Below, piece by piece: positions 44,635 to 64,000 of a stretch of 64,000 nucleotides of DNA. Each line of letters starts with the position of its first letter. The first letter of the stretch is position 1. Below the pieces are notes generated by a model. The model did not search any database. It was not told where the DNA came from and was given only the letters and a program-made list of their open reading frames with translations. Both the position numbers and the translations under genes were made by a program. The stretch is from Eledone cirrhosa (Eukaryota), in the NCBI GenBank assembly GCA_964016885.1, contig OZ024740.1, positions 319,362,001-319,426,000 of the forward strand, read 5' to 3'.

Positions 44635-44974
44635 GTATTACAATTATTATTATTGATTACCTTTTGGTTGACAAGTGTAGTTTTTTCTTTAAATCATTTA
44701 CACTACTAATTTTTGTAAATTATTACAGGCCGAGACATATGCAGTAGGAAACGTTTTCTCTCTTTTTTGGGGGGGGAAATGACTGACTTTGAAATGAATC
44801 CTTTGAAAGAAAGGTTTGTTGCTGTTGAAAATAAAAACAACTTATTTGGTTCATTGTTAGTTTTGCGAGTGTGATATAAATACAAAGTACTTTGATTTAA
44901 TTAACATGTGTGATCAAATATTCAAATTAGTGTGAGTCCTATGAAAACAGTGCCATTGATTCAATATATTGCTC

Positions 44975-45081
44975 TCTATTTTTGGCACAAGGCCATCAAA
45001 TTTAGGGGAAGGGCAAAGCTGATTAAATTACACCCAGTACTTCACTGATATTTTATTTTATTGACCTCGGAAGGATGAAAG
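44975..45081 (-). mobile_element. 3' fragment of tRNA-derived SINE (same family as 45898-46090), diverged
   Basis: Reverse complement reads CTTTCATCCTTCCGAGGTCAATAAAATAAAATATCAGT...GTACTGGG...TGGCCTTGTGCCAAAA, matching the 3' half of the SINE at 45898-46090. Confidence 0.8.
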
Positions 45082-45307
45082 AAATTCCTTCAATGTATTA
45101 ACGAAACTGAAGGCTTTGAAGGGAAAATTGCTATATTTATGAGCAGACACTACACAAAATGAACTGTGATCATTTAGCTGTTACGTGTGAAAATATTATT
45201 TTTGATAGATGAAAATTTTAGTCTATTGCTAGAAGATTCAAATGGTGTCAAAATTTAATTTCTTGCAAAGCCAGCTGTAAAATCGCTCGGTATGCAAAAT
45301 ATGTGAA

Positions 45308-45424
45308 GGGTTGTGGCTTAGTGGTTAGAGAGTTGGATTCGCAATCGTGAGGTTGCAAGTTCAATTCTCGGACCGGGTGATGCGTTGTGTCCTTGAGCAA
45401 GACACTTTATTTCACGCTGCTCTT
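45308..45424 (+). mobile_element. tRNA-derived CORE-type SINE, 3'-truncated
   Basis: A-box TGGCTTAGTGG (45314-45324) and B-box GTTCAATTC (45359-45367), followed by TGTGTCCTTGAGCAAGACACTTT (45386-45408), which resembles the MIR/CORE-SINE core TGTGACCTTGGGCAAGTCACTT. Confidence 0.75.
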
Positions 45425-45897
45425 TCTGCCAGGAGTTGCGACCGGTATATAGTATCAGCAATGGAAAGACCAATGGAAACATTGTTTCTTTGATCTGATT
45501 TTACGAAGTCCACCCCACTCGGCAAGCGAATGAGGTTTGGGATCTTGTCGATCGATCAAAGCATATCAGGCTAATTAGCCGATGTATATTTTAGATAATA
45601 CTATATATTCTCAAGAGTTCTTGTGAGTGGCAGGAGAGAGAGATACTCAATATTGACAAAGGGCAATAACCCAGAAAGAATATTATTGTCGATTGTTTCT
45701 CTCTGTCACCGCTAGAACAAAAGGATGGTGATAGCCATCTAAAAACATAGCGTATTGAGGCTGTTTGCTTGCAAACGAATCGAATATTATTATTATTCGA
45801 TATAAAACTTACAAATGCATTTACGTATCCGCTGTGTTAGAGCGAAAAACTAAACTCTCATTTTGTTTCAAATGTTATCATTATTTGGATTGGTAAG

Positions 45898-46090
45898 GAT
45901 GGTGGATTGGCAGTATCGGTAGAGGGTCGGACGCCATGCTTTCTAGCATAGAGTTACGGCCCTTGCCATTCTGAGTTCAAATCCCGCCGAGGTTAACTTT
46001 GCCTTTCATCCTTAAGGGGTCGATAACATAAAGTACCAGTAATGCACTGGATAATTGCTGGCCTTGTGCCAAAAGTAGAAACAATTATTA
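45898..46090 (+). mobile_element. Full-length tRNA-derived SINE (~190 bp, Octopus-type)
   Basis: A-box-like TGGCAGTATCGG (45908-45919), B-box GTTCAAATC (45975-45983), body CTTTGCCTTTCATCCTT..GGGGTCGATAA..AAGTACCAGT and an ATTATTA tail. About 93% identical (12 differences in 186 nt, by eye) to the inverted copy at 55711-55896. Confidence 0.9.
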
Positions 46091-46166
46091 CGGGGTCAAT
46101 AAAATAAAGCACCAGTAATGAACTGGGGTAATTGCTGGCCTTGTACCAAAAGTAGAAACATTATTA
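46091..46166 (+). repeat. Second copy of the SINE 3' end in direct tandem
   Basis: GGGGTCAATAAAATAAAGCACCAGTAATGAACTGGGGTAATTGCTGGCCTTGTACCAAAAGTAGAAACATTATTA repeats 46016-46090 with several substitutions. Confidence 0.85.
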
Positions 46167-46529
46167 TGAAAATGTTTGGAATGACTATAATATATTTTAG
46201 TAAAACACACAATAGAGTTATTTGTACATATCCTGGTCTGTTATAGTTAAATAAATGTGATACTGACAATAGTGTGAAAGCTTTAAAATGTGAATTAACG
46301 ATGTCATATAAATTATAGCAACTTGTTGCTATTGGTAAAGACATTGTTAGTCTCATGATGGGAATTATCAAAATATTGAAGCAGAATTTCCTTCAATTAT
46401 TTTAATTATATGTTGTGTCCTTCAGTTAAACAGTGTTTCCTGCTTCTGTTGACTGTTTACCAAGAGGTTTGGGATTTCTTGTATCAGAAACACACAAATA
46501 GATTTCTCTCTCATGATTTAGACAGATGA

Positions 46530-46629
46530 CTTATACAAAGTTGCTTTCGATAGGACCTGCTTGAAGGAGTACTTGAGGACTCTTCTTCCACGACTCTCCT
46601 AGGAATAAGTGGGTGAAGGAGAAGAAGAA
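46530..46629 (+). mobile_element. Old RTE-clade LINE 3' end with short GAA tail
   Basis: GTTGCTTTCGATAGGACCTGCTTGAAGGAGTACTTGAGGACTC...AGGAATAAGTGGGTGAAGGAGAAGAAGAA aligns with the 3' ends at 47470-47560 and 54908-55000. Confidence 0.75.
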
Positions 46630-46856
46630 CTTATAAAACCACATACTCGATAGTTAATGATGGAGAAAACCTACTAAAGATTCCTACAACTGCAGAACTT
46701 GGTGGTTAATTATTGAACCAGCTGTGGGAAGAATAAGAACCCACTCACTTGAATTATAAACCTGTTTTCAAACTAAGAATTCTAAAAAATGCTTTTCTAC
46801 TGAAATACTTTATAAAATGTATTCGGATGAAAATAACTTGGTATATTTGTTATTTA

Positions 46857-47153
46857 CGATTGTTGGTTGAAAAGTTCATAGGCTGACCAGATGCTCTCAT
46901 GGAATGATCAAATGAGGTTTATTTTTCAACATAGTCCCTGGAAGGAAACACTGTAGTTATTAATAAGAAGAGTTGAAATTAATACATGCAAGATTTCACA
47001 GCTCTAGAAACAATCCTTTATAGTCAGCCTATAGCCCCTGGAAAGAAATAATGCAGTTATTAATAAGAAGAGTTGAAATTAATACATTCATGATTTCACA
47101 GCTCTAACATCACTCCTTCTTAGTCAGCCTATGAACTTTTCAGCCCGGCCTTG
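46857..47153. mobile_element. Mariner-type MITE with an internal 100-bp tandem duplication
   Basis: ~31-bp TIRs whose inner 20 bp (TGAAAAGTTCATAGGCTGAC / GTCAGCCTATGAACTTTTCA) are a perfect inverted repeat. TA flanks both ends (46855-56, 47154-55). 46931-47030 is repeated at 47031-47130. Homologous to 60427-60624. Confidence 0.88.
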
Positions 47154-47278
47154 TATCTCATTCTTGACCAACTACGTGTAAATGTATGACTTGAGTTGAC
47201 GACTTGTTAAAGCAAGGTTATTAGATGAATTAACATTACTGAGAAAACCATATGGGAATACATTAAAATCATCAACGC

Positions 47279-47630
47279 CCGAATTGAGAGATCACAGCTT
47301 CGATACTATGGTATGTGGTTAGAATGTCTCAGGAAAGAATCACTGGACACATTTTACGAACCAAACCAACCTGCAAGTGACCGAGAGGTAGACTCCAAGC
47401 ATGAGGGTTGGACAACATCCGTGAGCTTGGCTGGTCTCGCTTAGGGATCCAGCCGGATCAGTTGGAGATGGTTGCTTCTGACAGGACCTGCTGGAAGGAG
47501 TGCCTTAGCGCTCTGCCCACCACGACACTCTCAGGAATATGTGGGTGAAGAAGAAGAAGAAGAAGAAGAAGAAGAAGAAGAAGAAGAAGAAGAAGAAGAA
47601 GAAGAAGAAGAAGAAGAAGAAGAAGAAGAA
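47279..47630 (+). mobile_element. RTE-clade (Rex3/Expander-like) LINE 3' fragment with (GAA)28 tail
   Basis: Degenerate translation RIERSQLRYY...KPTCK*PRGR...LDNIRELGWSRLGIQPDQLEMVASDRTCWKECL resembles the RTE ORF C-terminus (GRRPRGRPRTRW...AWERLGIPPEELEEV). Ends in (GAA)28. Confidence 0.8.
47547..47630. repeat. (GAA)28 microsatellite
   Basis: Pure GAA run of 84 bp. Confidence 0.97.
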
Positions 47631-47637
47631 TGATTTC

Positions 47638-47643
47638 TTTATT
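47638..47643 (-). promoter_or_regulatory. Polyadenylation signal AATAAA at the LINE 3' end
   Basis: TTTATT on the + strand, ~250 nt after the ORF2 stop and 4 nt before the element end. Confidence 0.6.
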
Positions 47644-47892
47644 AACCACAAGGGTTTACATAAAGTAGACATTAAGGACAGTGCAGGACAATGCAGGACG
47701 GTACAAATGGGCATTTCTGCGTGTAAAAAACAAAAACAGAGGATGTAACAAAAATAACAATGAAAATAACAATGAAAAATTCCCCAATAGGGGGGAGACT
47801 TCGGAGGGACATTTGTGGAGAAAGCCCAGTAAAAAGCCACAATGACCCTGACCACCAAGGCAAGTGCCCTCTCCCAGTTTTCCACCTTTAAT

Positions 47893-50800
47893 TTACAGAT
47901 ATATACTCAGAGTAGGCCCATTCACTCGGGCCATTCTTGCTTCTCTCACCCATCTTTCAACAAAATGCTGGGAAGAGAGCACTTCCCTCTCTACTCTGAT
48001 TTTCCTTTTCAAATGAAATTTGAAAAAGTCAATCAGAGCATCACCGAAGAGGTAAGTGCTCGTCTTCAGCCCTTTCAAACGTGTCCACCATACTATCTCT
48101 TTCGCCATGGCCACCAGACAGATAAAAACTGCCTGCCCTTCCTGGCTAAAGGAGGGGGGCGGGGCAATCCTCACGATGGACTCAGATGATAGCCGGATCC
48201 GTCCTAAACGCGACAGCAGGTGTTCGACATAAACCCACAAGTCAGCAATTTTCGGACACTGGACGAGTGCGTGCAGGACGGTTTCGTCGCCCTGCGCGCA
48301 TCTCGGACATGCCCGGTTGACGGCACCTCCATGCCTGTAGAGTTTATCCCGAACTGGCAAGGCTCCTCGGTAGCACTGCCAGGCCAGAGATTTCTGGAAG
48401 TTGTCCATAGGCCCCGGCCCGAAAGTTCTTCCGAAGAGATTGGCTAGTTGATTTTCGTCGACGCCTAGAGTTTCCCCAAGTACGTCGTCGCTCTTACCCT
48501 CCACTAATCCTCTATAGAACGCCGAGGTGGAGTTTCCACCGATCACATTGCCCGATTGGTCGAGGGCTGTGAGCGCCTGAAGACATTTCAGTCTCCAGGC
48601 GCTCCCTCTCGGTCTTCGCTTGACCCAGGACTGCAGCTCCGTCAAGGAAACGAGCTGGGGAAATACGCGCCTAGCAAACGGCGACCACACCTGATCACCG
48701 TCGAGGAAGAGGTGGAGATGTCGTAGCCTGAGCGCGTGTCTGCGCATCATCAGCCACGGCATGCCCAGCCCTCCACGTAGCGGGTGTTGACAACAGATGG
48801 ACCGCCTGACCATCGGAGCACGTCCCTTCCACAAAAAGCGAAAGAGCAAACGCTCCAGCGCAGTCAGGCTAGGCTTAGGACAAGGCACGACGGTCAGGCG
48901 GTAGCAGATGACAGACGCGATGTACGCGTTAGCCACCTCCGCTCGACCTTTCAGGGATAGCTTCCTCTCCGCCCATTTCTGTGTGAGAGAAGCCACCCTG
49001 CTCGTCACCTCGTCCCAGTTTTTGTCCGTCTGGAGGTCCGGACCGAACCAGACCCCTAGCAATTTAACCGGTCCGTCCAGCGTCCGACGACGCTGTTGGA
49101 CGGCATGAACCTTCCTCTCCAGGTGCCGAGCTGCAGGCCCACTGACTTTTCCTGGTTGATCATTGCTCCTGTCACCGCTTCGTATTCTCTTAGTGTAGTG
49201 CCGATCGCCTCGATGTGTTTGGCGTTCGACACCACTACGGTGACATCGTCCGCATATGCTGACACGGATCTTCCGCATCCTAGTTCGCGCAGGACTCCCC
49301 TCAACGTCTCCAGTTTGTGCAGTAATGGCTCGAGAGTCAATACGTACAAGAGGGACGAGAGGGGACATCCTTGGCGGACCGAGCGCATGATGTTGAACGG
49401 TTCCGACAGGTGACCGTTCACTCTCACCACAGAGCAGATGTCACTGTGCATGGCAGCGATCCAGCCTCTGAAGACGGGCCCAAAGCCAGCCGCCCTCAGG
49501 ACTGCCGCTAGGTAACGATGGTCGACCCTATCGAAAGCTTTCAACCTCTTTGCTAGCACCTTGGCCAAAATCTTGAACTCTGTGTTTAGCAGAGTTATGG
49601 GCCGGAAATTGTCTATGTTATCCCCCTCGTTCGGATCCTTTCTCAGCAGTGCCACCGCTCCTCGGCTCACAGAACTGGGAATTCTCCCGTTCTGTTGCCA
49701 GTTGCAGTAGAAGTCCGCCATGAGGCCTCCGAACAAGTCTGGCATCTGTACGTAAAGTTCATAGGGAAGACCATCCAAACCAGGCGATTTACCCCTTGTG
49801 CAGCCAGTCATTGCCTCCCTTACTTCAGCGGCTGTTATCGGCTTTTCGCAACACTTCGCCTCAGTGGCCGAGAGCCGCGGCAGTCCGTCGAGGTAGACAC
49901 TAAAGTCCATTCCTCTACCCGGCCCACCGCTGCCCCCGAACAGCTGAGCGAAGTGTCGCTGAAAAGCTTCACACATTTGCCCGGGATCGAGTAGCATGCG
50001 CCCGTCGTGGTCCACCAAAGACCGGATCGTGGCTTTGTTGCCACGACGCGCCTCCGCCACTCGGGCCCATTGAACGGCTTTCGTCCCCTCGTGTCTGAGA
50101 GCACGCACCCTTGCTCTGACAACGCAGCCTTCGTGCTTTGCATTGAAGAATTGGTCAAGGGCCAATTTCGCCGCAAGCACGTCGGTCGCAATGCCTTTGC
50201 TAAGCGCCTCGTCTAATTTTCTAACTAGTTCTCCCTCTGCTCTATTTTTCTCTATTGCTAAAGCCTTACTAAACCTAATCGATTCTATTCTAATCGCTCT
50301 TTTCAGAGCAAACCACCACTTGTTGTTGACGATGGCCTCCGTCAACGCCCGCTTAACTAGTTCGCTAATCCGGTCTCTGTAGGCCTTGCGCGCTGGTAAG
50401 GACGCGTTTAGCTTCCAGTAGCCGGGTCCTCGTCTATGAAGCCTATCTAAGTCAACCACACAGATCACGAATTTGTGGTCCGTGTAGCTGACTATCTTGA
50501 ATTGTGGACAGCCTATGCTAGACCTATCTATTTCCCTACAAAATACTCTATCTAGATATGATCTGGATGACCCTATGCGGTTTGTCCAAGTCCACATTGG
50601 CACATTCGGGAAATCCAATCGGTACCTGTCAGACAGTTCAAAACGCCTGAGCAGGTTGGTGAGGCTCTTGCACCCTCCACCCCTATCCGCTAATCCCACA
50701 CAGTCCCAGCGTGCATCTAAGATCCCGTTCCAGTCGCACACTAACACTAAAGAGCGGGACGTTCCAAGAAAGGTCTCCAGACGCCGGAAGAAATCAGGCC

Positions 50801-51155
50801 GCCCTGCTCCTGTCGGGGCATAGACGGCCACTAGCCTGAAAGCTTGCCCGTCTCCGCTGGTCACGTCCAGCACCACCAACTTACCCTCTGGGTCCAGGAA
50901 GATGGCCCGTATGGCGAGATCCAAACCTCTCCGAAAAAGCACAGCAACTCCTCCACCCGATCCAGGACGGCTGGGAGATGCGTACACATCGTAGCCGCCG
51001 AAGATCGGTGCGAAGGCCCGTGCTTCGGAGATTCTGGTCTCGCTGATGGCCACTACATCTATGTTTAGTGACCTGAGGTCGTTGAGCAGGTGACCCTGCT
51101 TCCATGACGACCCCAAGCCACGCGCATTTATGCTGCCTATTCTGAGTGAGGTCAT
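47893..51155 (-). pseudogene. LINE ORF2: APE endonuclease + reverse transcriptase + C-terminal Cys/His zinc finger; frameshifted, with an internal deletion
   Basis: EN motifs SINARGL, VAISETR, VYAP, xDWN, SYLDRVF and TDHK. RT motifs GKSPGLDGLPYE, NFRPITLLNTEFKIL, KAFDRVDH, VRQGCPLS and YADD (49245-49256). C-terminal CPRC...ETVLHALVQC. ORF 49056-51155 joins ORF 47893-49368 across a frameshift at ~49075. Confidence 0.93.
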
Positions 51156-51190
51156 GTTTAAAATAGAGTGGAAAAGATGGGAAAGACCAC

Positions 51191-53295
51191 TTACCGTACT
51201 TTTGGTAGAGGAGGGATGGTTTTTACATCCCTTTTCACTTGATCGTCTGGTGAAGGGACCGTTGAATCGTCCCTTCGGCTGGTCGTCGGCTCTTCTAAGA
51301 GAATGTCTGAATATACTCTTCGATTGATGGTTCCTCCTAGGTCCCTGAAATCACCAACTGCGTTGGGGAATTTCGTTTTAATGTTTGTGTATTGTTTCTG
51401 TGCTATTTTTAGCAGTCTTATGTTAGTTGGCGTTTTGATTGGTGCTGGTATTATGTAGTCCTGTTGTGAAATGTCTGTGTGTTCAATTATGTAAGTCATT
51501 AGTTTCCTGTTGTGTGTATTTATTGCCGTGCATTTGTTTTTCTGGGGGTGGGGTGTGGTTCTGCTATTTTCTTGTCGTTGTTGCTGGGTGTATGTGTTTT
51601 GTTGTTGTGTTTGCGATGTTGGTGCTTGTGGTGGTGGTGTTGAAGGTGTTGTTGGCGGTGGGGTTGTCGCCGGTGGTGATGGTGGTGCTAGTGTGGGTGG
51701 TGATGGTGTTGGTGGTGTTGCTGCTGTGGGTCTCTTTCCAGTAGACTTTACCCTTTTCTCCTTTCTTTCCTCCCTTTTCAAAGGCGACGATGCGCTGCTT
51801 CTGCGTTTGTGCCTTCTTACGACCTTTTGCCATCCCTCTCCCACCTCACACTCCATGTCTGATTCTGTGAGGTCGGGGAGGGGTACCAGCTCCACTCTTT
51901 CACTTGTTGTTGTTGGTGATGTTTGCACTGGAGTCTCTGTTGCAGCTGCATTTGGTATTGCTGTTGTTGTTAATATTTCCACTGCTGCTGCTGTTTTTGA
52001 TTTCCGTGGAGTGGGTATGGGTGCCACGGACCTATCGTTCCTGGTTGCCGCTTGTCCTGTTGCTGGTAGCCGTGGAGCCGGATTCGGAAGGAGGGGGGTT
52101 TCCTCCTTTCTCAGGGTCTTCTCGTTGCAGAAGGCCCTGAGGTGAGTCTTCGATCCACAGCGAAAGCATTTCGGGTGTTTGCCCTCAACACTTATGGGCA
52201 GTTGAGTGCCGTTATCGAAGTCTATCACATCCGGGATAGCTTTGATGCACTCCTGGTTGGTTTGGATTAGCATCTCAATGGAGGTGCCTACCCAATCTTC
52301 TCTTACTTTTTTCTGTACTTGCAGTACAGTTGTTTTGTCCTCGATTCCGACGAGGACAGACGCGGCCAGCCAAGAAGGGGCCATTCCGGGGGGGGGGGGG
52401 GCGTGGGTCAGTTTGACCCTCACAATTTTTTGCCCGCAGTAGGAGGGCACCAACACCATTTCCTCGCTCCTTAGGGTCACTACTGATTGGGCCTTTGCCT
52501 CCTGGGTGTGGCAAAAAGTACGTCTACGGTGGCATATTTTTTGCCTCGGGTGATGTGCGTTTTCCGCTGCCACACAGACCCCAAGGCTTTTTGTATTTGG
52601 GCCTCTGTGGCTCTTTCCACCCTACGGGATTTTGTACTTACTGTACGGTACGTGACCGTACAGTGCTCTTGGGTTTCGAAAAAAATTTCCGCTGCCTTGC
52701 AGATTGCTCAGTGTTCATTCTTTGTCACCATCTTCTTCGCTTCCTCTAATTCCTCATTTGTTATGAGGATTGTTTCCAAGTTTTTCGCAATACCTGCAAA
52801 TGAGATTGGTTTTTCTCTGCTGCTGCTGTTGTTGTTGTCGTCAGAGCTGCTGGTACTTTTGTTGTTGCTGCAGGTACTACGACTACTGCCTCCGCCGCTG
52901 TTGCTGTGGTTGTTGTTGGTGTTGCTGCTGCCAATGCTGTTGTTGTTTATGCTGCTGGTGATGCTGTTGCAGCTGCTACTGTTGTTTTCATTGTCACTGT
53001 TGCTGTTGTTATTACCGCTGCTACTGCTATTATTCCTGACGTCAGACGAATGAACTGGGTTTTCGTATTTCCCGCACACCTGTTTCGTCGCTATCGTCGT
53101 CGTCGTGGAGAAACCTTGCACGCTTTGCACGAGACTTTTCTTTTCTTTCGTCACTTGCGAAAGAGAAGGGAGAGAGAGAGACACATTTAAAGAAGGGAGG
53201 GAGAGAGACAATCTTCTCTCTGCTGTAGTGATGATTGAGGAAGAAGAAGACGGAATGAGTGGGTGTGACGTATGAAATTTCTTTTTCGTAGCCAT
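51191..53295 (-). pseudogene. LINE ORF1 (gag-like; low-complexity N-terminus, RRM-like region, CCHC zinc knuckle, Pro/Thr-rich tail), disrupted
   Basis: ORF 52708-53295 stops at an in-frame TGA (52708-10). Reading continues AICKAAEIFF...RGKKYATVDVLFATP, then shifts frame at ~52503 into ORF 51191-52573. The knuckle CFRCGSKTHLRAFC (CX2CX4HX4C) is at 52127-52168. Confidence 0.85.
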
Positions 53296-53509
53296 GTTGT
53301 TTTTTGTTTAAAATGAATATTGGGTACAAAACCCCAATAACTGGTTATTTAACCCCGAAGGACCAAATAACGGACAGAAAGACCCCTCTCATGAGGAGGA
53401 GGGTGTCTTTATCAACAATTTGGTTCAAGTTTTAAACAATTTACAATTGTTTTAACGGTTAAAAATTACTATACCTTACAGAGCCGAGCCTCCGTCAACC
53501 ATGGCATTC

Positions 53510-53551
<42 letters not shown>
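53510..53551. repeat. (AAT)14 microsatellite abutting the LINE 5' end
   Basis: Pure AAT run of 42 bp. Confidence 0.95.
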
Positions 53552-53929
53552 TTGATATATTGTAATATTGAAAATATTTCGATCCTAAACCTTTAATCAG
53601 GTTATTGGTTTGAAGAATTAGAACGGAGAGATGTGCGCAAGAAAGCAAAGTTAATAATTCCTTTTATGCTTATTCAAACAGCTGAAAAAATATGAGAAAA
53701 AGTTTTGAAATTCTATGAAATATTGCAGCCCATTTTCCCAATTGATGGAATATTTGGATGCATAAAATAATCCATATCTGGTACCAAAATCCATTTGTTG
53801 GATTGCCAGTCAATAAAATATTTAATCTCAATGTGTTTATGTCATTATAGACAGAAATACCTATTATTATTGAGTGTCAGCATTATTAACCCTTTCGTCT
53901 GAAGATTGCCACCTTACTTCTGCCCTAAT

Positions 53930-54110
53930 ATGTCGTTCGCCTCGTGGTCCCAGTCCACATGATGGAAAAGATATTGCTCCAGAGGACGGCGAGGGCAACG
54001 TGGTGAAACAGCCACTCCACCTCGCGGGGCTCATACCCGCGGACAGCCAACTCCGCTCCGATGGCAGTGAGCAAGGATATGGTCCGAGAAGGGAGGGGCG
54101 AGAACGGGAT
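53930..54110 (-). mobile_element. Probable 3'-terminal fragment of a CRE/RLE-type non-LTR retrotransposon
   Basis: A GC-rich island in AT-rich DNA. The minus-strand peptide SRTISLLTAIGAELAVRGYEPREVEWLFHHVALAVLWSNIFSIM resembles the CRE-clade C-terminal pattern (..IG.R+A..G..RE..WL.QR+S+A+.RGNA.SI), judged from memory. Confidence 0.45.
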
Positions 54111-54548
54111 CAATAAAACTAATGTAGACATTTTTTGGAGAGAAGTTTATAAGTGTAAAGATGTTTTGAATAGACTGTGGCACTAAATACCATCATAATG
54201 TTAAGAATATCTGCCTGGGGAGGTATAGAAGCTTGTGTAAATTATATTCATATAAAAGGTAATGAAAATATTGAGTAATATATTTTCTGAAAAAGCAATG
54301 TGAGGAAATTAGTTCTAGTTAATATATTTAATGCATTTGGAGTTAATTCTACATATGTTAAATTCAAAATGGGGGAAATATTTGTAAACTTAGAATCTTA
54401 GGGGCGCCGCATTGACGGCGTTTCTTGAATATTTAAAAACCCGACGGAGCCCATCTCCTCTCCAGATCTGAATACAGCAGATTTCTTTCAAAGAAAAGGA
54501 TAGAGAATAAGAGAATGAAAGTGAAAAAGAAATATAGAGGAAGGAGCG

Positions 54549-54700
54549 CCCCTAGTACTAGACTGGTACTTTTTGATCGATCTCGTATGGATGAAAGGCA
54601 CATTTGACCTCGGCGAGTCCTGAACTTAGAGAGTAGAGAGTCGGACCAAATACTATAAAGCATTCTATTCGATGTTCGAACAACATTGCTACACCCACCT
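54549..54700 (-). mobile_element. Older diverged tRNA-derived SINE
   Basis: ACTGGTACTTTTTGATCGA..GGATGAAAGGCA..GACCTCGGCGA..TGAACTTAGA matches the minus-strand SINE at 55711-55896. Confidence 0.8.
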
Positions 54701-54744
54701 CCCTTATACGCAGGAATACATTATTTAATATGTCTTTTCTTTAT

Positions 54745-55115
54745 TTAGGACAGTAAGGGGTAGAACCGAAATTCTCCGAATTGTGAGATCACAGCTCCAA
54801 TACAAAGGGCATGTGGTCCCAGGAGTAGACTCCGATCATGATGGCTGGATAACATCCATGAACCTGTCTGGTCTCGCTTGGGGATCCAGCCGGATCAGTT
54901 GGAGACGGTTGCTTCTGACAGGACCCGTTGGAAGGAGTGTTTGAGGACTCAGCTGACCACGGCACTCTCAGGAATAAGTGGGCGAAGAAGAAGAAGAAGA
55001 AGAAGAAGAAGAAGAAGAAGAAGAAGAAGAAGAAGAAGAAGAAGAAGAAGAAGAAGAAGAAGAAGAAGAAGAAGAAGAAGAAGAAGAAGAAGAAGAAGAA
55101 GAAGAAGAAGAAGAA
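54745..55115 (+). mobile_element. RTE-clade LINE 3' fragment (internal ~70-bp deletion) with (GAA)44 tail
   Basis: Homologous to 47279-47630 (GAATTG.GAGATCACAGCT...GGTCTCGCTT.GGGATCCAGCCGGATCAGTTGGAGA.GGTTGCTTCTGACAGGACC). GAA run at 54984-55115. Confidence 0.82.
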
Positions 55116-55710
55116 TGACTGTAATTCGAGGGAAATTTGACTGCTATTTCTAGCAGTCAAACTCTACTGAGCTTAGTAGAATGGAGGCGTATCATACGAT
55201 TCATGATTACATTGCAATTGTTATGTACGCAGAACTCCACTATATACCTCATAACCCACGCCTCAATATGTGCATGTTGAAGAAGATAAGCATTTGGTGC
55301 TTAGTAATGATATATACAAGAGAAGTGACAGCATAAATATCTGTTACATACTCTGTGGTAGATAATAATAACTTAGAATATCTCCTGGTCGTGGTCATTA
55401 TTACTCAATGTTCTATTGTGTGTGTGAGAGAAGGTGTGAGAGAGAGAGATTAAGAGGGTGAGAGAGAGGGTGAGAGAGAGGGTGAGAGAGAGAGGGTGAA
55501 AGAGAGAGATTGAGAGGGTGAGAGTGAGAGAGGGTGAGAGAGAGTCTGTGGATGGGAAAGAGAAAGAAAAGACAAAGAGAGACAAAGAGAGAGAAGGTTT
55601 GGGTGAAAGGGGCGAAAGAGAGGTGTATGTGAGAGATAGTGAAAGAGAGAAAGAGAGTTAGAGAAAGTAAGAAAGTTTGTATGAAGGGGGAAGTGTTTGA
55701 AAGAGATAAT

Positions 55711-55896
55711 TGTTTCTACTATTGGCACAAGGCCAGAAATTACCCAGTACATTACTGGTACTTTATTTTATCGACCCCGTAAGGATGAAAGGCAAAGTTA
55801 ACCTCGGCGGGATTTGAACTCAGAATAGCAAGGGCCGTAACTCTATGCATCAAAGCATGGCGTCCGACCCTCTACCGATACTGCCAATCCACCGCC
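55711..55896 (-). mobile_element. Full-length tRNA-derived SINE
   Basis: Reverse complement is GGCGGTGGATTGGCAGTATCGGTAGAGGG...GAGTTCAAATCCC...GGCCTTGTGCCAATAGTAGAAACA; ~93% identical to 45898-46083. Confidence 0.92.
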
Positions 55897-55901
55897 AAAA
55901 A
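55897..55901 (-). terminator. RNA polymerase III oligo-T terminator (T5) of the tRNA trailer
   Basis: AAAAA on the + strand, 30 nt downstream of the tRNA 3' end and directly abutting the SINE 5' end. Confidence 0.6.
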
Positions 55902-55930
55902 TTTTTTAAAGATTTGTGCCAACCTCCGGA

Positions 55931-56003
55931 TGCCGAAACCCGGGATTGAACCAGGGACCTTTAGATCTTCAGTCTAACGCTCTCCCAACTGAGCTATTTC
56001 GGC
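55931..56003 (-). tRNA. tRNA-Phe-GAA: tRNA-Phe (anticodon GAA), 73 nt, intact, no encoded CCA
   Basis: Reverse complement GCCGAAATAGCTCAGTTGGGAGAGCGTTAGACTGAAGATCTAAAGGTCCCTGGTTCAATCCCGGGTTTCGGCA is the canonical metazoan tRNA-Phe, with acceptor stem GCCGAAA/TTTCGGC and anticodon loop CTGAAGA. Confidence 0.97.
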
Positions 56004-56136
56004 TGGTGTTTGAAAGAGATAATGAGATATAGAGTGAAAGGGAGTGAGAGATGAAGTAATAGAGTGAGAGAGTGAGAGAGAGAGAGAAAGAGTGGGTGAG
56101 GGAGGGAGAGAGGGAGAGAGAGAGGGAGAGAGAGAG

Positions 56137-56197
<61 letters not shown>

Positions 56198-56318
56198 CAG
56201 GCTTAGAAATCAAAGAGCAGGTTACAAGAGCAATGACCTAAACAAGAAAATAACAAAATGAGGGAAAAACCTGTTAGTTAATTTAAAAAAAGAAGAAAAA
56301 AAAACAACGTTTGAAAAT

Positions 56319-57410
56319 AGCTCAGCACAAACGTAACATATTCCATCATAGGTTAACAAAGAGTAAACACAGCTCAGCACAAGCTTGACAGATTTCATCA
56401 TAGGTTAGGAAAGATAAACCAGGCTCACCACAAATGTAACAGATTTCATCATAGGTTAGGGAAGATAAACCAGGCTCACCACAAATGTAACAGGTTTCAT
56501 CATAGGTTAGGGACGATAAACCAGGTTCACCACAAATGTAACAGATTTCATCATAGGTTAGGGAAGATAAACCAGGCTCACCACAAATGTAACAGATTTC
56601 ATCATAGTTTAGGGAAGATAAACCAGGCTCACCACAAATGTAACAGATTTCATCATAGTTTAGGGAAGATAAACCAGGCTCACCGCAAATGTATCAGATT
56701 TCATCATAGGTTAGGAAAGATAAACCAGGCTAACCGCAAATGTAACAGATTTCATCATAGGTTAGGGACGATAAACCAGGCTCACCACAAATGTAACAGA
56801 TTTCATCATAGGTTAGGGAAGATAACCAGGATCACCACAAATGTAACAGATTTCATCATAGGTTAGGAAAGATAAACCAGGCTCACCACAAATGTAACAG
56901 ATTTCCTCATTGGTTAGGAAAGATAAACTATGCTCAGCTCAAATTTAACAGATTTAATCATAGGTTAGGAAAGAGTACACACAGCTCAGCTCAAATGTAA
57001 CATATTTCATCATAGGTTAGGAAAGAGTAAACACAGCTCAGCTCAAACGTAACATATTTCATCCTAAGTTAGGGAAGACTAAACACAGCTGAGCTCAAAT
57101 GTAACATATTTCATCATAGGTTAGGGAAGATAACCAGGCTCACCACAAATGCAACAGATTTCATCATAGGTTAACAAACAGTAAACGCAGCTCAGCACAA
57201 ACTTGACAGATTTCATCATAGGTTAGGGAGGATAAACCAGACTCACCACAAATGTAACAGATTTCATCATAGGTTAGGAAAGATAAACTATGCTCAGCTC
57301 AAATGCAACAGATTTAATCATAGGTTAGGAAAGAGTAAACACAACTCAGCACAAACATAACAGATTTCATCATAGGTTAAGAAAGAGTAAACACAGCTTA
57401 TCTCAAACGT
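56319..57410. repeat. Minisatellite, ~51-bp unit, ~21 copies
   Basis: Unit AAACCAGGCTCACCACAAATGTAACAGATTTCATCATAGGTTAGGGAAGAT, with a subtype GAGTAAACACAGCTCAGC(T/A)CAAA. The TCATCATAG-like core was counted 21 times. Confidence 0.95.
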
Positions 57411-57529
57411 ATGTAATTGAAGGAAATAAAAAAAAACATATGAAATAAAGGGTTAACGGCAACTAGCAATTTTGCAATTGAACTACCGGAATGCTGAAAA
57501 GATCGTGGCTTAAAGGTTTCGTGAAAGGG

Positions 57530-57672
57530 TAGAGTTGTTACCTTTGCAGGGGAGGTAGAACTGCTGTAATAAGTGTGTAAATCTGAGAGGGGAATATTTT
57601 GAATAAAATCATAATGAACTACCCCGCCTGTATTTTATTTTACCCAAAGCTAGGAACTTTTCAGCAACCCAG
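57530..57672 (+). mobile_element. Mariner transposase 3' end plus right TIR (relic)
   Basis: 57571-57606 translates KCVNLRGEYFE*, the typical mariner C-terminus (KC...G.Y.E*). It is followed by GGAACTTTTCAGCAACCCAG+TA, similar to the MITE right TIR. Confidence 0.7.
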
Positions 57673-59083
57673 TATATAAATATTGAAATAGTAGGCGAAC
57701 AAGAACTTACAACCTTGAAAGATTATATAGATAGTTACTGACTGGAAACTATTAAATTGTAAGGACTTACAAATAAACGAGATAGATTAATTAACAAATA
57801 ATAAAACAATATTAGAAACATAACAACCAAAGCTAGAAAAATAAAGAAAAAAATGTTTTTGTTTATCCAAACAGGAAGTGGTCTCTACTGTGAAATAAAT
57901 GATATCAAGTAGTTAAGTGGTTCAAGATCAAACATAGATAAGTTAGTAAATTCTAGGCTGACATATGGTGAATGAGACTGCATATAGACTTGCACCATTA
58001 CCATAAATGGATAGATTATTTGAAATGTTGAGAAAGAAAGCAAATATTAGAAGGAACATATTAGAGTAAATATTTCAAATAAATGCAAATGCAAATACTG
58101 GGCTACACCAGATGTAGTGTTCATATTTGCTGGAAACCAATAATTCATTGAATACAGGAGGAATATGTTCATAATTTGTATGCAGAGCCAAACTGGAAAG
58201 CAATGGATCACTAATCAACCTGAGTATCTATGTCAGGATTTTCATAGGAATGGTGGTTAGGCACATGGAATATCATGCCGAGCGGGGATGTGGTGGTATG
58301 AATCCTAATAGATACTTGATAATAGAGAACAATTATTAAAGATAAACACATCACTAGTGAAATCATAATTCACCATTGAAACCGACTGTAGCTTTCAATG
58401 ACTATTAGCAATCCTATGATTTGTATCACAACATGAGTTAATAAGGTTGCTGATGTTTGTATGATTTGAGAAGATAAATTATTGATAAATGGTGAACGGA
58501 ATTAGAAGAGTTTGTTGGTGATAAGCAGCAAGGAAGCTTTTAAATCATAATTTCATAAGGGATTCCGGTAGGAAATAATAATTTTCCAGTAAATTTTGAT
58601 TCATAGACGTCCAGATCTCTAAGCTATTGATACTAAAGGGACGAATGGTTTAGAAAGGATATTATGTTGCAAGAAGCGTTAACTGAAAAATAGCCATTGA
58701 TGATCTGAATACATGTATATGTAGATATATGTAGATAGCCAGTCAAAGATGGGAGAAACGCTGTTATACCGGAAACGATTATGATAAACGATAGCCGTAA
58801 AAGGAATTTTGACAATTCAAGAATGATTAATAGAAGGAAACGTAGTGTGGCATGAAACCAAATGAGCAAGTAGAATCATATTGAAGAATAAACATCAGTG
58901 TGAGAAACCAGAGCTATCAGGAGGTAAGATTTGATTTTAGAAAGTATTGTAAAAATAAAAAGAAGACTTAAATTATTGATATGACCTGACCGTAAGATAA
59001 AATCCATTCAAGAAATACAACATAGGAAACTGAGGAATATTAACAGTGAAATGATGAAATATACAGAAGGAAGAGAGAATATA

Positions 59084-59832
59084 CCATATATACTGAAATA
59101 TAAGCCGATCCATATATAAGCCAATTATCAAGGTTTGCTCCCTTCCGGACTTTCTTTGAGGTCTCACGATACGCAATCTTTGTGCGTCCACCACATTCTT
59201 CCAAGGACAGGTCGCAAGCCCATCGTCAGTTTCTATAACATGAAATGCAAACTGCAATAAATTTTTCGAACATGCCCCTCTACCTAAAGCCTGAACGCGT
59301 CCCTTGTTATGGTTCTTTTTTATTCCTTTCACCATATTGAAATTGCAGTTTCTTTGGTATTATTCGCACCACTCACCAATCTGGTACTTTATCAAACCCA
59401 CGAAGACTAGGCTTTTTTAGAGGCAGCCTTTATTCGCCTCGTCATAGCTACATCTCTGGGTTGTGAGAGTTTCTTGTGAGCTCCAGATGTAACCCATTGC
59501 TCCATCTTCCCTAGTAGTTTACCGCCGTTGGTCTGGAGTTGCTTATTCGTCCAGAAGTTGTCCTCTTATATCCCAATTAACCATCATATCTGATGACCGT
59601 ATCGCTACCCGTCACCTGCGACCCGTTCTCTAGCAGAACAGCTCTGCTTAGAACCGTATATAAGCCGACCCATTTCCATGCCTGAGAAATAGGCGAAAAT
59701 CCAAACTCCATTTATAAACCGAGGCAGCTAATCAACACATTGTTTAGATGGTATATATATATAAACCAACCTCCAATTTTACTATCGATATTTTGGTTAC
59801 ATATTCCTCAACTTATATTCGAGTATATACGG
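59084..59832. mobile_element. Non-autonomous Tc1/mariner-superfamily (Tc2/pogo-like) DNA transposon
   Basis: TA|CCATATATACTGAAATATAAGCCGA at the left end versus the right-end reverse complement TA|CCGTATATACTCGAATATAAGTTGA. Internal repeats of TATAA(G/A)CC(G/A)A at ~59099, 59115, 59659, 59713 and 59760. Confidence 0.75.
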
Positions 59833-60426
59833 TAATTTTCTACTCAAACAGTTGTAACACATTACCACCATTCCAACCCAACACACATTACTCTGGAATT
59901 TACTACTTGGCACATGTTTGCACAGAAAACTACCTTCCATACCTTGAGTCGAAATGGCAACTGCACGAAACGTATATAGCTATAACGTGTAACCCTCCTT
60001 CTCAAAGTTCGCCTCTATAGCTTATATTACAAAGTAGATGCTATGAAACCACCCAAGTGCATTTATGGCAACCATTTTAATGATTTAGGTAGATGATTGT
60101 GTACTAAATGACAAGAAAAAATTTACTTTGAAATGAAATTTAAGACTATACTTTGTTGATGATGTCTTATAAGAACGAAACCTGACCGTAGCCGTCACCT
60201 TGTCTACTATCAATGATCAGACCCCACCCCACCCACATCCCCACCCAGCAAGTATGAAGATTAAAATTTTCAGGAAAATTAAATCTTAAGTTCTTGGAAG
60301 AATTTTTGATACTCTTTGACAAGCATTAACAATTATCAATGGAATTGTTTTATTTCTGTCCACAACTAAGAGGCAAATTTCCCCCAGAATCCTTTTTTCG
60401 TACATCATTCAATACATCTTCATATG

Positions 60427-60624
60427 CAAGGGTCGGCTAAAAGATACATAAGCTGACCAAGATACTCTCATGGAATGACCAAAATGAGGTTTATTTTTCA
60501 ACATAGTCCCTGGAAAGAAACACTGCAGTTATTAATAAGAAGAGTTGAAATTAATGCATCCAAGATTTCACAGCTCTACCTTCACCCTTTCATAATTCGC
60601 CTATAAACTTTTTAGCCGACCCTC
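60427..60624. mobile_element. Mariner-type MITE (single-unit form of 46857-47153)
   Basis: 14-bp perfect inverted ends AGGGTCGGCTAAAA / TTTTAGCCGACCCT. The body CTCTCATGGAATGA..AATGAGGTTTATTTTTCAACATAGTCCCTGGAA..AATAAGAAGAGTTGAAATTAAT is shared with the other copy. Confidence 0.85.
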
Positions 60625-60756
60625 TAAGCTTGGGTATGTAAACAGAGACCGTCCCCTCTAATCACAAAACAACTTCCTGGTGCAGGCATAACGAAACAAT
60701 ATAAATCTTTATTCAAATTCAATGTTATAAACCAGCCTGGCGTTTCCTCTTTATTT

Positions 60757-60836
<80 letters not shown>

Positions 60837-60870
60837 ATCTATAAATATGTATATATATATGTATATATAT

Positions 60871-61057
60871 ATATTTATTAAAATAACAGATTAAAGTTTA
60901 AGCAAAGTATCGTCTTCCTGTCTTCCTCCGGTTGCAACGTTTTTTGAAATATCCAGTTCTGCGTTTACAGATTGACTTTGGTAGTTTCAGAAGATCCCGT
61001 TAAGGGTGAAAGCAGCGATTCTTTGCTTAAACTTTAATCTGTTATTTTAATAAATAT
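60871..61057. repeat. 42-bp inverted repeat (1 mismatch) around a 103-bp spacer; possibly a Penelope-like element end
   Basis: 60871-60912 ATATTTATTAAAATAACAGATTAAAGTTTAAGCAAAGTATCG versus the reverse complement of 61016-61057 (...GCAAAGAATCG). Confidence 0.9.
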
Positions 61058-61172
61058 TTGCTCTACGGTTCTTATATATTTGATATATATTTATCCTTAT
61101 CGAGCCCTCTTTGGATTTTAGTCTTCAAATTTATTATTATTACTATATGTATATATATATAGGTATACATAT

Positions 61173-61232
<60 letters not shown>

Positions 61233-61311
61233 GGGCCGAAACATTTGCTTCAGGTGGGTTTCTTCTCAAAAGACCTCCTATTGTCCAGCTCTCCTAAGAG
61301 TGTATTACCAC

Positions 61312-61345
<34 letters not shown>

Positions 61346-61364
61346 ATAAGTATATATATATGTC

Positions 61365-61450
<86 letters not shown>

Positions 61451-61809
61451 CATTGCTATATATATATATATATATATATATGCATATAATTTTTTCAAAA
61501 TTGTATAGATTGTAAAGTATTTTAATTTCAACAGTATAAATGTGGTGTAACGGTTAAAATCTAAACTACCGACTACGTTTCAGTCACGAACGGGGCGTTA
61601 GTACATTGTATTAGGTTTCCATATATCCGGCATATTTCCAAGGCCAACAATAGGCTGTGACAATTTGAAACATATGATTGTTCTTATTTTCTCTTTCCTC
61701 TATTTCTTTATATAATTATTACTTATATACGTACATATGTACTTAGGTACAGACACATCAGCACACCTACATAGACAAATATACATACATACATATATAT
61801 ATATAAGTG

Positions 61810-61869
<60 letters not shown>

Positions 61870-61887
61870 AATATATATATATATACA

Positions 61888-61987
<100 letters not shown>

Positions 61988-62071
61988 TATATATAAATAT
62001 ATTTATACATATACATATTTATATATATATATATATATTATTATTATGTAATAAACAACATAAGGCAATTA

Positions 62072-62131
62072 TTCCATTTACCAGTGGTTTCTTAAAAGCA
62101 AAAGGTTTTGCTTTCAATCCTCAGAATGAAA
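62072..62131 (-). ncRNA. Minimal type-I hammerhead ribozyme motif (Penelope-like/retrozyme type)
   Basis: Minus strand reads UUUCAUU-CUGAGGA-UUGAAAGCAAAA-CC-UUUUGCUUUUAA-GAA-ACCACUGGU-A-AAUGGAA. Stem I is 7 bp, the core is CUGANGA/GAAA, stem II is 11-12 bp, stem III is short and near-palindromic, and the cleavage triplet is GUA. Confidence 0.75.
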
Positions 62132-62354
62132 AATCCTGGTTTGTTTATTGAATATGGATTCTAAAAACAAAAATGCAATCTATATGAAAGTGAGGCTGGA
62201 AAAGGGAGAAGGAAAGGAAAAATAAAATAAAATAAAACTACACATGCAAACACACACAAAAAAAACATAAAAGCATACTTACACGCACACACATATATAC
62301 ACATATAATTTGCACGCACACATATATACACATACACACACATACATATATATG

Positions 62355-62388
<34 letters not shown>

Positions 62389-62464
62389 TATATATATATA
62401 AAAAGAGCGTACACCTACACACACATACACATATATACACACATATACACATACATATATTCAT

Positions 62465-62515
<51 letters not shown>

Positions 62516-62549
62516 CATATATATACACATGTACATATCCATACATATA

Positions 62550-62583
<34 letters not shown>

Positions 62584-63042
62584 CATACATATACACATAT
62601 ACAGACATATACATACACACACACACACACACACGCACACATGTGTGTGTACAAGCCTACACATACACACACACATATATATACACACACATATACATAC
62701 ATTCACACAAACATACAACGTACATACATACACATACATGAATGCACTCCACTACATATTAACACACGCAAATAAATATAAGAAAAAAATATATATAAAT
62801 AATATTAACAAATATTTGACAGCGATACATGCCCCAGCTAACAGGACAGACACGCGTGGTAAGTAATACACACATAAGCACATATACATACGTTCGAAAT
62901 AGTAAACACATACACACACTCTCACACATAAATATACATATACAAATACATAAACACGTACATACACATACATACGCAAACACGTACACGTATACAATAT
63001 AAACACACACATGTATATGTAATTATATACACACACACACAC

Positions 63043-63083
<41 letters not shown>

Positions 63084-63338
63084 CAAAAATATAAAAATAT
63101 AAACGCAAACACACATATACATACATAGCTAAACAATTATACACATGCAAATACGTATATATCAAAAGAACGCACAACCAAATACAAACACACACACATA
63201 TATATACACACACACACACCCCCACACACAAACCCACACATACATAAAAATAAATAAAAACACACGCAACATATACATACATACACATACATATACATAT
63301 ATACATACATACATATACATATACACATATACACACAC

Positions 63339-63384
<46 letters not shown>

Positions 63385-63526
63385 ACTTACACATACACAC
63401 ATGCATACACATACACACACACATATACATGTGTGTATGTGTAAAGCTCAGTATTAGATAAGACAAATGAACCTTACATAAACGTATATATAGTAGTAAA
63501 GTAATAAAGCCATACAAGGCAATTAA

Positions 63527-63583
63527 TCCATTCACCAGAGGTTTCTTAAAAGCAAAAAAAGTTTCCTTCAATCTTCAGAATGA
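63527..63583 (-). ncRNA. Second, degenerate hammerhead copy
   Basis: Minus strand reads CAUU-CUGAAGA-UUGAAGG...CUUUUAA-GAA-ACCUCUGGU-G-AAUG. The core is intact but the cleavage triplet is GUG. It lies in a ~100-bp repeat of 62048-62141. Confidence 0.55.
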
Positions 63584-63671
63584 AAAAAAGCCCTGGTTTA
63601 TCCACATATACATACATATACACACACAAATATACAAATATATACACACATACAGACACGCACACACACAT

Positions 63672-63744
<73 letters not shown>

Positions 63745-64000
63745 CATATATACATACACATATATACACATACATACATACATATGCATACATACATACA
63801 CATATATATACATACACAAACATATACGTACACATATACATATATACACACACAAATACATACACATACACATAGGTATGTGAAGGGCAAAACAAAAAGA
63901 ATATATGGGGGAGGGCTAAGAGGAGGTAAAAATATAAGGGGAGGTAGGGGGAGAAAAATTATTTTTAAAAATACAAGAGTACAGAAGGTAGAAGCAGCAA

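Follow-up and report, generated by a model that had tools for sequence, protein, structure and literature searches.

A type I hammerhead ribozyme motif in a multi-copy repeat family beside TA repeats in Eledone cirrhosa

The window analysed here, a stretch of 64,000 nucleotides of Eledone cirrhosa DNA, opens with a 101-bp satellite (1-44628, about 441 copies, 91% match) that has a strong C-over-G strand skew and contained 0 hammerheads by the descriptor used below, and it ends in a microsatellite field. An L1/Tx1-type LINE on the minus strand (47896-52621) contained an ORF1 region and an ORF2 with EEP endonuclease, RT and zf-RVT, and was split by a frameshift near 49060-49440. Among three matches at E<=1e-150, the closest named relative of ORF2 was from the octopod Argonauta hians (53%), and a homolog search among the longer proteins gave one amphioxus match. 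A tRNA gene with the GAA anticodon (Phe, 69.8 bits) at 55931-56003 of the minus strand adjoins a SINE-like repeat; the SINE-like family was found at 45901-46166, 55706-55893, 54551-54630 and 45025-45081, one copy having a tandemly duplicated 76-bp end. Further repeats were a 51-bp minisatellite of about 21 copies with two open frames, the minus-strand frame giving a Cys-rich repeat (56320-57392), a dispersed repeat containing an internal tandem unit of 100 bp (46870-47145 and 60439-60617, 86-92% identical), and LINE-like 3' ends terminating in (GAA)n tracts (47388-47630, 54825-55067 and 46540-46629).

Within the microsatellite field, two segments in the same orientation (62048-62142 and 63501-63599, hereafter copy 1 and copy 2) aligned with 81.8% identity over 99 columns (E 1e-21). 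The duplication agrees with the original prediction, with the correction that the element of copy 1 is longer and covers at least 62044-62200. Simple runs made up 778 of the 1,359 bases (57%) in 62142-63500, and no similarity elsewhere was found for the spacer. The features of the locus are presented in Table 1.

A type I descriptor (CUGANGA, stem II of at least 2 bp, GAAA, stem III of at least 2 bp, UH, and stem I of at least 4 bp) was applied to both strands of the 64-kb window and gave a single match, at 62124..62079 of the minus strand, with 7, 12 and 4 nominal pairs. When G was permitted at H17, one further match was obtained (minus 63578..63533), and none of 200 dinucleotide shuffles of 44651-64000 contained even a loose match. 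The complete type I hammerhead that had been proposed for copy 1 is borne out by the descriptor match and the shuffles. On the minus strand, copy 1 has a stem I of 7 bp, CUGAGGA at 62124-62118, a stem II of 11-12 bp closed by U-A, GAAA at 62091-62088, a near-palindromic stem III (ACCA-C-UGGU) and GUA. The CUGANGA/GAAA/UH core is satisfied by copy 1, while copy 2 has G at H17 and violates the UH rule. As described earlier, copy 2 nevertheless keeps core and pairing around its GUG: CUGAAGA and GAAA are present and 3 of the 21 pairs are broken, so that 39 of the 42 cells of the drawn structure are paired over both copies, with zero two-sided changes in this two-copy count. For stem III, the near-palindrome stands but the fold drawn for it does not, since a 1-nt loop cannot close and the monomer would have 3 bp and a 3-nt loop.

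The Rfam hammerhead models, a search proposed with the original prediction, gave no match to either copy at gathering score or at E<=10. Over the whole window, tRNA-Phe alone reached gathering, and the 115 matches at E<=10 were mostly microsatellite-driven, with 0 hammerheads among them. Folding z-scores were weak (-1.8 to +0.2), and both weak signals probably arise because the motif is AU-rich with a tiny stem III. A covariance model of the two copies found no third copy in 44600-64000; its next match (61230-61360, E 0.1) was driven by TA runs and was rejected. Matches from a pattern scan (3 viral, 2 metagenome and 1 prokaryote-genome) were attributed to chance, as 0 of the 6 had the hammerhead layout.

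Table 1. Features of the hammerhead-bearing locus, in window coordinates.
Feature	Position	Strand	Basis or remark
(AT)n tract, likely target, adjoining copy 1 at its 3' end	61945..62038	.	Sequence, repeat scan
Copy 1, multi-copy repeat; likely 3' end/pseudo-LTR of a Penelope-like element	62044..62200	-	Contigs and reads
3' segment past the predicted cut, 35 nt	62044..62078	-	Continues into (TA)n or the shared extension
Type I hammerhead, copy 1	62072..62131	-	Descriptor, drawn structure, family conservation
H17, predicted cut 3' of this base	62079	-	Descriptor; no family variant listed at 4% or above
ACCAG, complementary to CUGGU of stem III	62136..62140	-	94-nt fold; both copies; predicted competing pairing
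Splice-acceptor-like site, 23/23 pyrimidines then CAG	62196..62222	-	Candidate pseudo-LTR intron end
Spacer, AC/AT-type microsatellites	62201..63500	.	No recognisable coding or element sequence
Copy 2, cut short upstream, decayed	63501..63599	-	Alignment, substitution comparison
Hammerhead motif, copy 2	63526..63585	-	CUGAAGA (63578), weakened stem II, GAAA, GUG (63533)

The two hammerhead-shaped sequences are a real motif and are members of a multi-copy repeat family. Part of 62040-62250 was present in seven public DNA runs from organisms A-D, and four of the runs (X1, X4, X6 and X9) were aligned to this interval at 80% likeness. Copy 1 was matched by 1,246 contigs of X1, 14 of X4 (organism B) and 3 of X6 (organism C), and by 2,784 raw RAD reads of X9. 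A single variant occurs at 115 read-start places, which together with the contig and read numbers shows that there are many copies; the summed contig depth (up to about 1e6) was not taken as a copy number. Coverage extended from 62044 to about 62200, giving copy 1 a length of at least 157 bp, with records cut at 62203-62250 by repeat skipping. Starts and ends of X9 reads at 62067 and 62153 were considered as RNA ends and rejected, because they lie at AATT sites and are read as RAD cut sites of the presumed enzyme; one of these sites is in the window and the other is created by a common variant at 62154. The loose ends of the alignments revealed a sister subfamily (182 X9 reads and 8 X1 contigs) with another loop II, CUGACGA and the same stem I arm. 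At 62091 and 62102, the loose ends (19 and 8 X1 contigs, respectively) have the GAAA/stem III/stem I 3' half in common and differ in stem II, which suggests that there are several hammerhead subfamilies and that these, having one palindrome in common, could dimerise with one another.

The variant table of the family contained 36 rows at 31 positions, and 10 rows at 9 positions were inside the motif; the table is unphased and leaves differences near read ends unlisted. The N7 change from G to U, which gives the canonical CUGAUGA, was present in 19% of the X1 depth and in 28% of the reads of X9. Two bases of the 4-nt loop II were variable, so that N7 and loop II together varied at 3 of 5 positions. 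Stems I and II had six variant rows, four of which keep the pair outright: U-G to U-A (41%), A-U to G-U (12%) and U-G to C-G (9%, the last two in X9) in stem I, and G-U to G-C (24-29%) in stem II. A variant at 62127 equals a 1-nt insertion at 62126 in depth and contig count (X1 and X4), and read together the two would restore stem I in a shifted register, while the variant at 62107 breaks the pair beside loop II. There were zero variants listed in GAAA, stem III or GUA, and the sole core row concerned G5 (62122), with 3 read starts, at least 8 other differences and absence from X1. When variants with at least five read starts were counted, 0 of 19 positions in the core and stem III varied against 19 of 97 in the flank (p=0.024); in the unfiltered comparison the counts were 1 of 19 and 22 of 97 (p=0.068), the one core position being that of the G5 lineage. 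Judged by these variants, the family is shown to conserve the type I hammerhead core and stem III, with variation falling on N7, loop II and mostly pair-keeping changes in the stems. The original prediction had named loss of CUGANGA, GAAA or UH from the family consensus, together with a lack of self-cleavage by monomer and dimer, as evidence against itself, and the family keeps CUGANGA/GAAA/GUA. It had also proposed to look for covariation among the copies: 4 of the 6 stem changes keep the pair, and these are unphased and all transitions. Two-sided compensation is accordingly not established by these stem changes, and the 4/6 proportion gives p=0.013 at equal rates and 0.05-0.14 with a transition bias of 2-4.

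In the isolated 60-mer of copy 1, stems I and II formed, stem III had a predicted probability of about 12%, and the full active fold of the monomer one of about 1%. In the 94-nt fold, the upstream ACCAG takes CUGGU instead, a predicted pairing that would block the monomer, and copy 1 stem I was not predicted when the 1,557-nt span was folded. For two copy-1 strands, the unconstrained cofold was close to the double hammerhead (-31.4 against -31.2 kcal/mol for the drawn form). Metazoan PLE hammerheads have been reported to lack activity on their own and to be weakly active when dimeric (PMC4209133; review PMC6765202, available part). From the poorly formed monomer, the foldable homodimer and this literature, we infer that cleavage would be dimeric, in tandem transcripts of the source element.

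Type I hammerheads with a small palindromic helix III are described in metazoan PLE pseudo-LTRs by Cervera & de la Pena 2014 (PMC4209133), and reportedly by Lunse et al. 2017. From 2014 onward, hammerheads of Penelope-like elements (PLEs) have been portrayed as massively present and widespread among animal genomes. They have U-rich/AU-rich flanks, a long helix II, a palindromic helix III and, following A9, one additional H (PMC4209133), and the accessible part of the supplement gives their consensus as U-rich, CUGANGAH, G...C, GAAAN, palindrome, NUH and AU-rich. The present family is like the PLE pseudo-LTR hammerheads (PMC4209133; review PMC6765202, as far as available) in its type I topology, CUGANGA-H, GAAA and U-rich/AU-rich flanks, in its long helix II, in a short and palindromic helix III that by prediction requires a dimer, in its mostly dispersed single copies with families and subfamilies, and in the intron-end-like site upstream. 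The Drosophila Penelope intron stops immediately before the hammerhead, where helix I has its 5' end (PMC4209133). The acceptor-like site at the present locus lies 72 nt upstream of the core and ranked 1 of 971 YAG sites in 44700-64000 (runner-up score 22), a rank to be read with the post hoc choice of the site.

The family differs from the PLE hammerheads in having no G10.1-C11.1 pair, which is called "highly conserved" in them (PMC4209133): U-A closes helix II, and the first G-C/G-U comes two steps later. The U-A pair had been flagged in the original prediction, and no family variants were listed at 62117 or 62092; the sister subfamily would have C opposite A at the helix II base if its 3' side is unchanged. 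Among 44 rows counted in the accessible part of the PMC4209133 supplement alignment, the first base of helix II was G in 40, A in 3 and U in 1, which belongs to a Schistosoma family. A retrozyme of the axolotl that has U.U at the helix II base was 22% cleaved in an hour (PMC7229834, accessible text). The U-A closing pair is therefore rare, with precedent in the Schistosoma row and the cleaving axolotl U.U. The accessible text of PMC9901934 holds nothing on the 10.1-11.1 pair. Helix II has 11-12 bp here and at most 8 bp in the same 44 rows of the accessible supplement. The palindrome is of odd length, giving a central C.C mismatch in the dimer, and no ORF is linked to the hammerhead here, unlike in PLEs. 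The portion of the PMC4209133 supplement file that was searched contained no cephalopod row, and no description of a cephalopod hammerhead family was found in the literature searched (which was without Repbase, Dfam and Lunse et al. 2017). For Octopus vulgaris, 31 recently active PLE families have been reported, with ribozymes unmentioned in the available part of that source (PMC13282606).

Two classes of junction were found among family copies at the low-coordinate end of copy 1, which is the 3' end on the ribozyme strand, 35 nt past the predicted cut. The end joined (TA)n in 34 X1 contigs, and it joined a shared unique extension in 18 X1 contigs and 1 X4 contig; 30 letters of the extension are visible. 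On the ribozyme strand, the extension could form by eye a 7-bp hairpin with an A/C-rich loop. In the available parts of PMC11167929 and PMC8557442, PLE copies carry an optional tail of 30-40 bp and have AT-rich targets. The Poseidon element PAc of Anolis (Frangieh et al. 2024, PMC11167929, available part) is alike in having a hammerhead near its 3' end, in its AT-rich target and in its two kinds of 3' terminus, one extended and the other not, and its RT initiates in an AC-rich stem-loop, which the extension hairpin resembles. It differs in that its ORF starts inside the hammerhead, whereas the ATGs past the cut here close within 2-5 codons, and in that its RT starts about 85-92 nt past the cut, whereas the short end here lies about 35-39 nt past it.

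A combined action of the two copies had also been predicted, in which a transcript spanning both would form a dimeric ribozyme, and this part was not supported. Co-transcription of copies 1 and 2 to give a double hammerhead, possibly joined by splicing out the spacer, would draw on their common orientation 1.45 kb apart, on a swapped dimer in which the copy 2 core would face the intact GUA of copy 1, and on the strong acceptor-like site at 62196. The heterodimer fold (-22.5 kcal/mol), however, is 5.9 kcal/mol above the cofold minimum (-28.4 kcal/mol), its shared helix has two adjacent mismatches, cross-copy pair probabilities in the folded 1,557-nt span are at most 0.002, and a strict pattern found no donor-like site between the copies. 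The copies differ by about 18%, and copy 2 has 14 substitutions. Three of these, towards loop II, also occur as variants in the family and 11 are unlisted; the unlisted ones include the non-family GUG, a stem III change and a G-to-mismatch change in stem II, the predicted energy of stem II being -2.0 kcal/mol in copy 2 against -8.9 kcal/mol in copy 1. On these grounds joint action of the pair is very improbable, and copy 1 is likely a near-intact passenger and copy 2 likely dead. The left flank of copy 2 recurs in one X1 contig. A continuation of copy 2 past the microsatellite, at 63875-63960, was rejected, since its score was equalled by 80 of 494 control tiles and by 913 of 1,000 shuffles.

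As to origin, both segments probably derive from the 3' end (pseudo-LTR) of a Penelope-like retroelement, or of a non-coding derivative of one, as separate and truncated remnants that inserted beside TA repeats. The U-rich/AU-rich flanks, long helix II, end classes, AT-rich target and acceptor-like site fit Penelope pseudo-LTRs. The pseudo-LTR arrangement itself is represented by two same-strand copies, but these are 82% identical and their spacer is microsatellite. The original prediction of Penelope-like or retrozyme remnants inserting in (TA)n was upheld as to the (TA)n junctions and with the Penelope-like source as the likeliest. EN+ Penelope-like elements have a single ORF for a telomerase-like RT and a GIY-YIG endonuclease, and the linkage to such a reading frame that was proposed as a check was not seen beside these copies: none of 70 ORFs matched in 53300-64000 (70 of 81 candidates, the other 11 being in the SINE-like, tRNA and minisatellite stretch 55685-57357). 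The L1/Tx1-type LINE was rejected as a partner, having an EEP endonuclease rather than GIY-YIG and lying 9 kb away. A chance fold of an AT-rich repeat, to which the missing Rfam match and weak z-scores would lend colour, is extremely improbable beside the 0/200 shuffles and a variation that avoids catalytic positions and takes N7 to the canonical U, or to C in the sister subfamily. A different kind of short repeat, such as a SINE-like one or the 3' piece of a LINE, with a hammerhead unrelated to PLEs, is improbable: no PLE ORF is linked, copy 1 is known only from 62200 down and the closing pair is atypical, but no Rfam tRNA head lies near the copies, and the 3' ends join (TA)n or the shared extension, not poly(A) or a short-repeat tail. 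The family might instead be a non-LTR retrozyme of 170-450 nt head-to-tail units with circular RNA, the copies being dispersed monomer fragments. It is like metazoan non-LTR retrozymes in being non-coding, low in GC, type I and high in copy number (PMC7229834; bioRxiv 10.64898/2026.07.22.740005, accessible parts of both), some retrozymes need dimers, monomers of such families are common and dispersed (same preprint, accessible part), the shared extension could be the next unit, and one axolotl class with a non-G-C helix II base, the U.U mismatch mentioned above, still cleaves (PMC7229834, accessible part). Retrozymes are, however, defined in the available text of these sources by 150-450 bp tandem units and circular RNAs. 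The locus has no tandem unit and the window no motif-bearing tandem array; the 211 bases aligned show no head-to-tail joint, a span in which longer units would not show; and PLE pseudo-LTRs are the better match for the length of helix II and for the acceptor-like site. A retrozyme identity is held to be unlikely, and it partly merges with the Penelope-like explanation, retrozymes having been argued to derive from PLE pseudo-LTRs (bioRxiv 10.64898/2026.07.22.740005, available part).

Under the preferred Penelope-like origin, a tandem transcript of the source element would carry two like hammerheads, whose near-palindromic ACCACUGGU segments would pair mutually through 8 bp around a C.C mismatch. 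The double hammerhead would cut after GUA, probably slowly or with protein help; the anole PLE hammerhead requires protein (PMC11167929, available part). Having nicked AT-rich DNA, a PLE RT/GIY-YIG protein would begin reverse transcription at either of two points downstream of the ribozyme, and the resulting copies would end about 35-39 nt past the cut or bear the extra tail. Where synthesis terminated early, short pieces of the 3' end such as copies 1 and 2 would remain.

The hammerhead class in Penelope-like elements is already known, and the family described here adds a member. A wider reading, tentative and rather doubtful as a whole, is that of a high-copy, TA-targeting, PLE-mobilised non-coding family in several octopods, with an active dimeric hammerhead of distinct build (no G10.1-C11.1, an AU-rich helix II of 11-12 bp, an odd palindrome and a monomer-blocking upstream ACCAG) and a core kept by selection. 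If true, self-cleavage would matter for PLE-type mobilisation in vivo, though dispensable in vitro for the anole element. The available part of PMC8557442 calls the function of PLE hammerheads unclear, and in that of PMC11167929 cleavage was unnecessary for insertion in vitro. The family lends itself to two modest tests, one of natural hammerhead function when the G10.1-C11.1 pair is missing and the other of selection on PLE hammerheads.

At 61235-61317, an insert of 83 bp of unique sequence was observed between two (TA)n stretches. It begins GGCC-GAAA-C, as would the 3' half of a further minimal hammerhead, but upstream of it there is no CUGANGA, and it possibly represents a second TA-targeting family.
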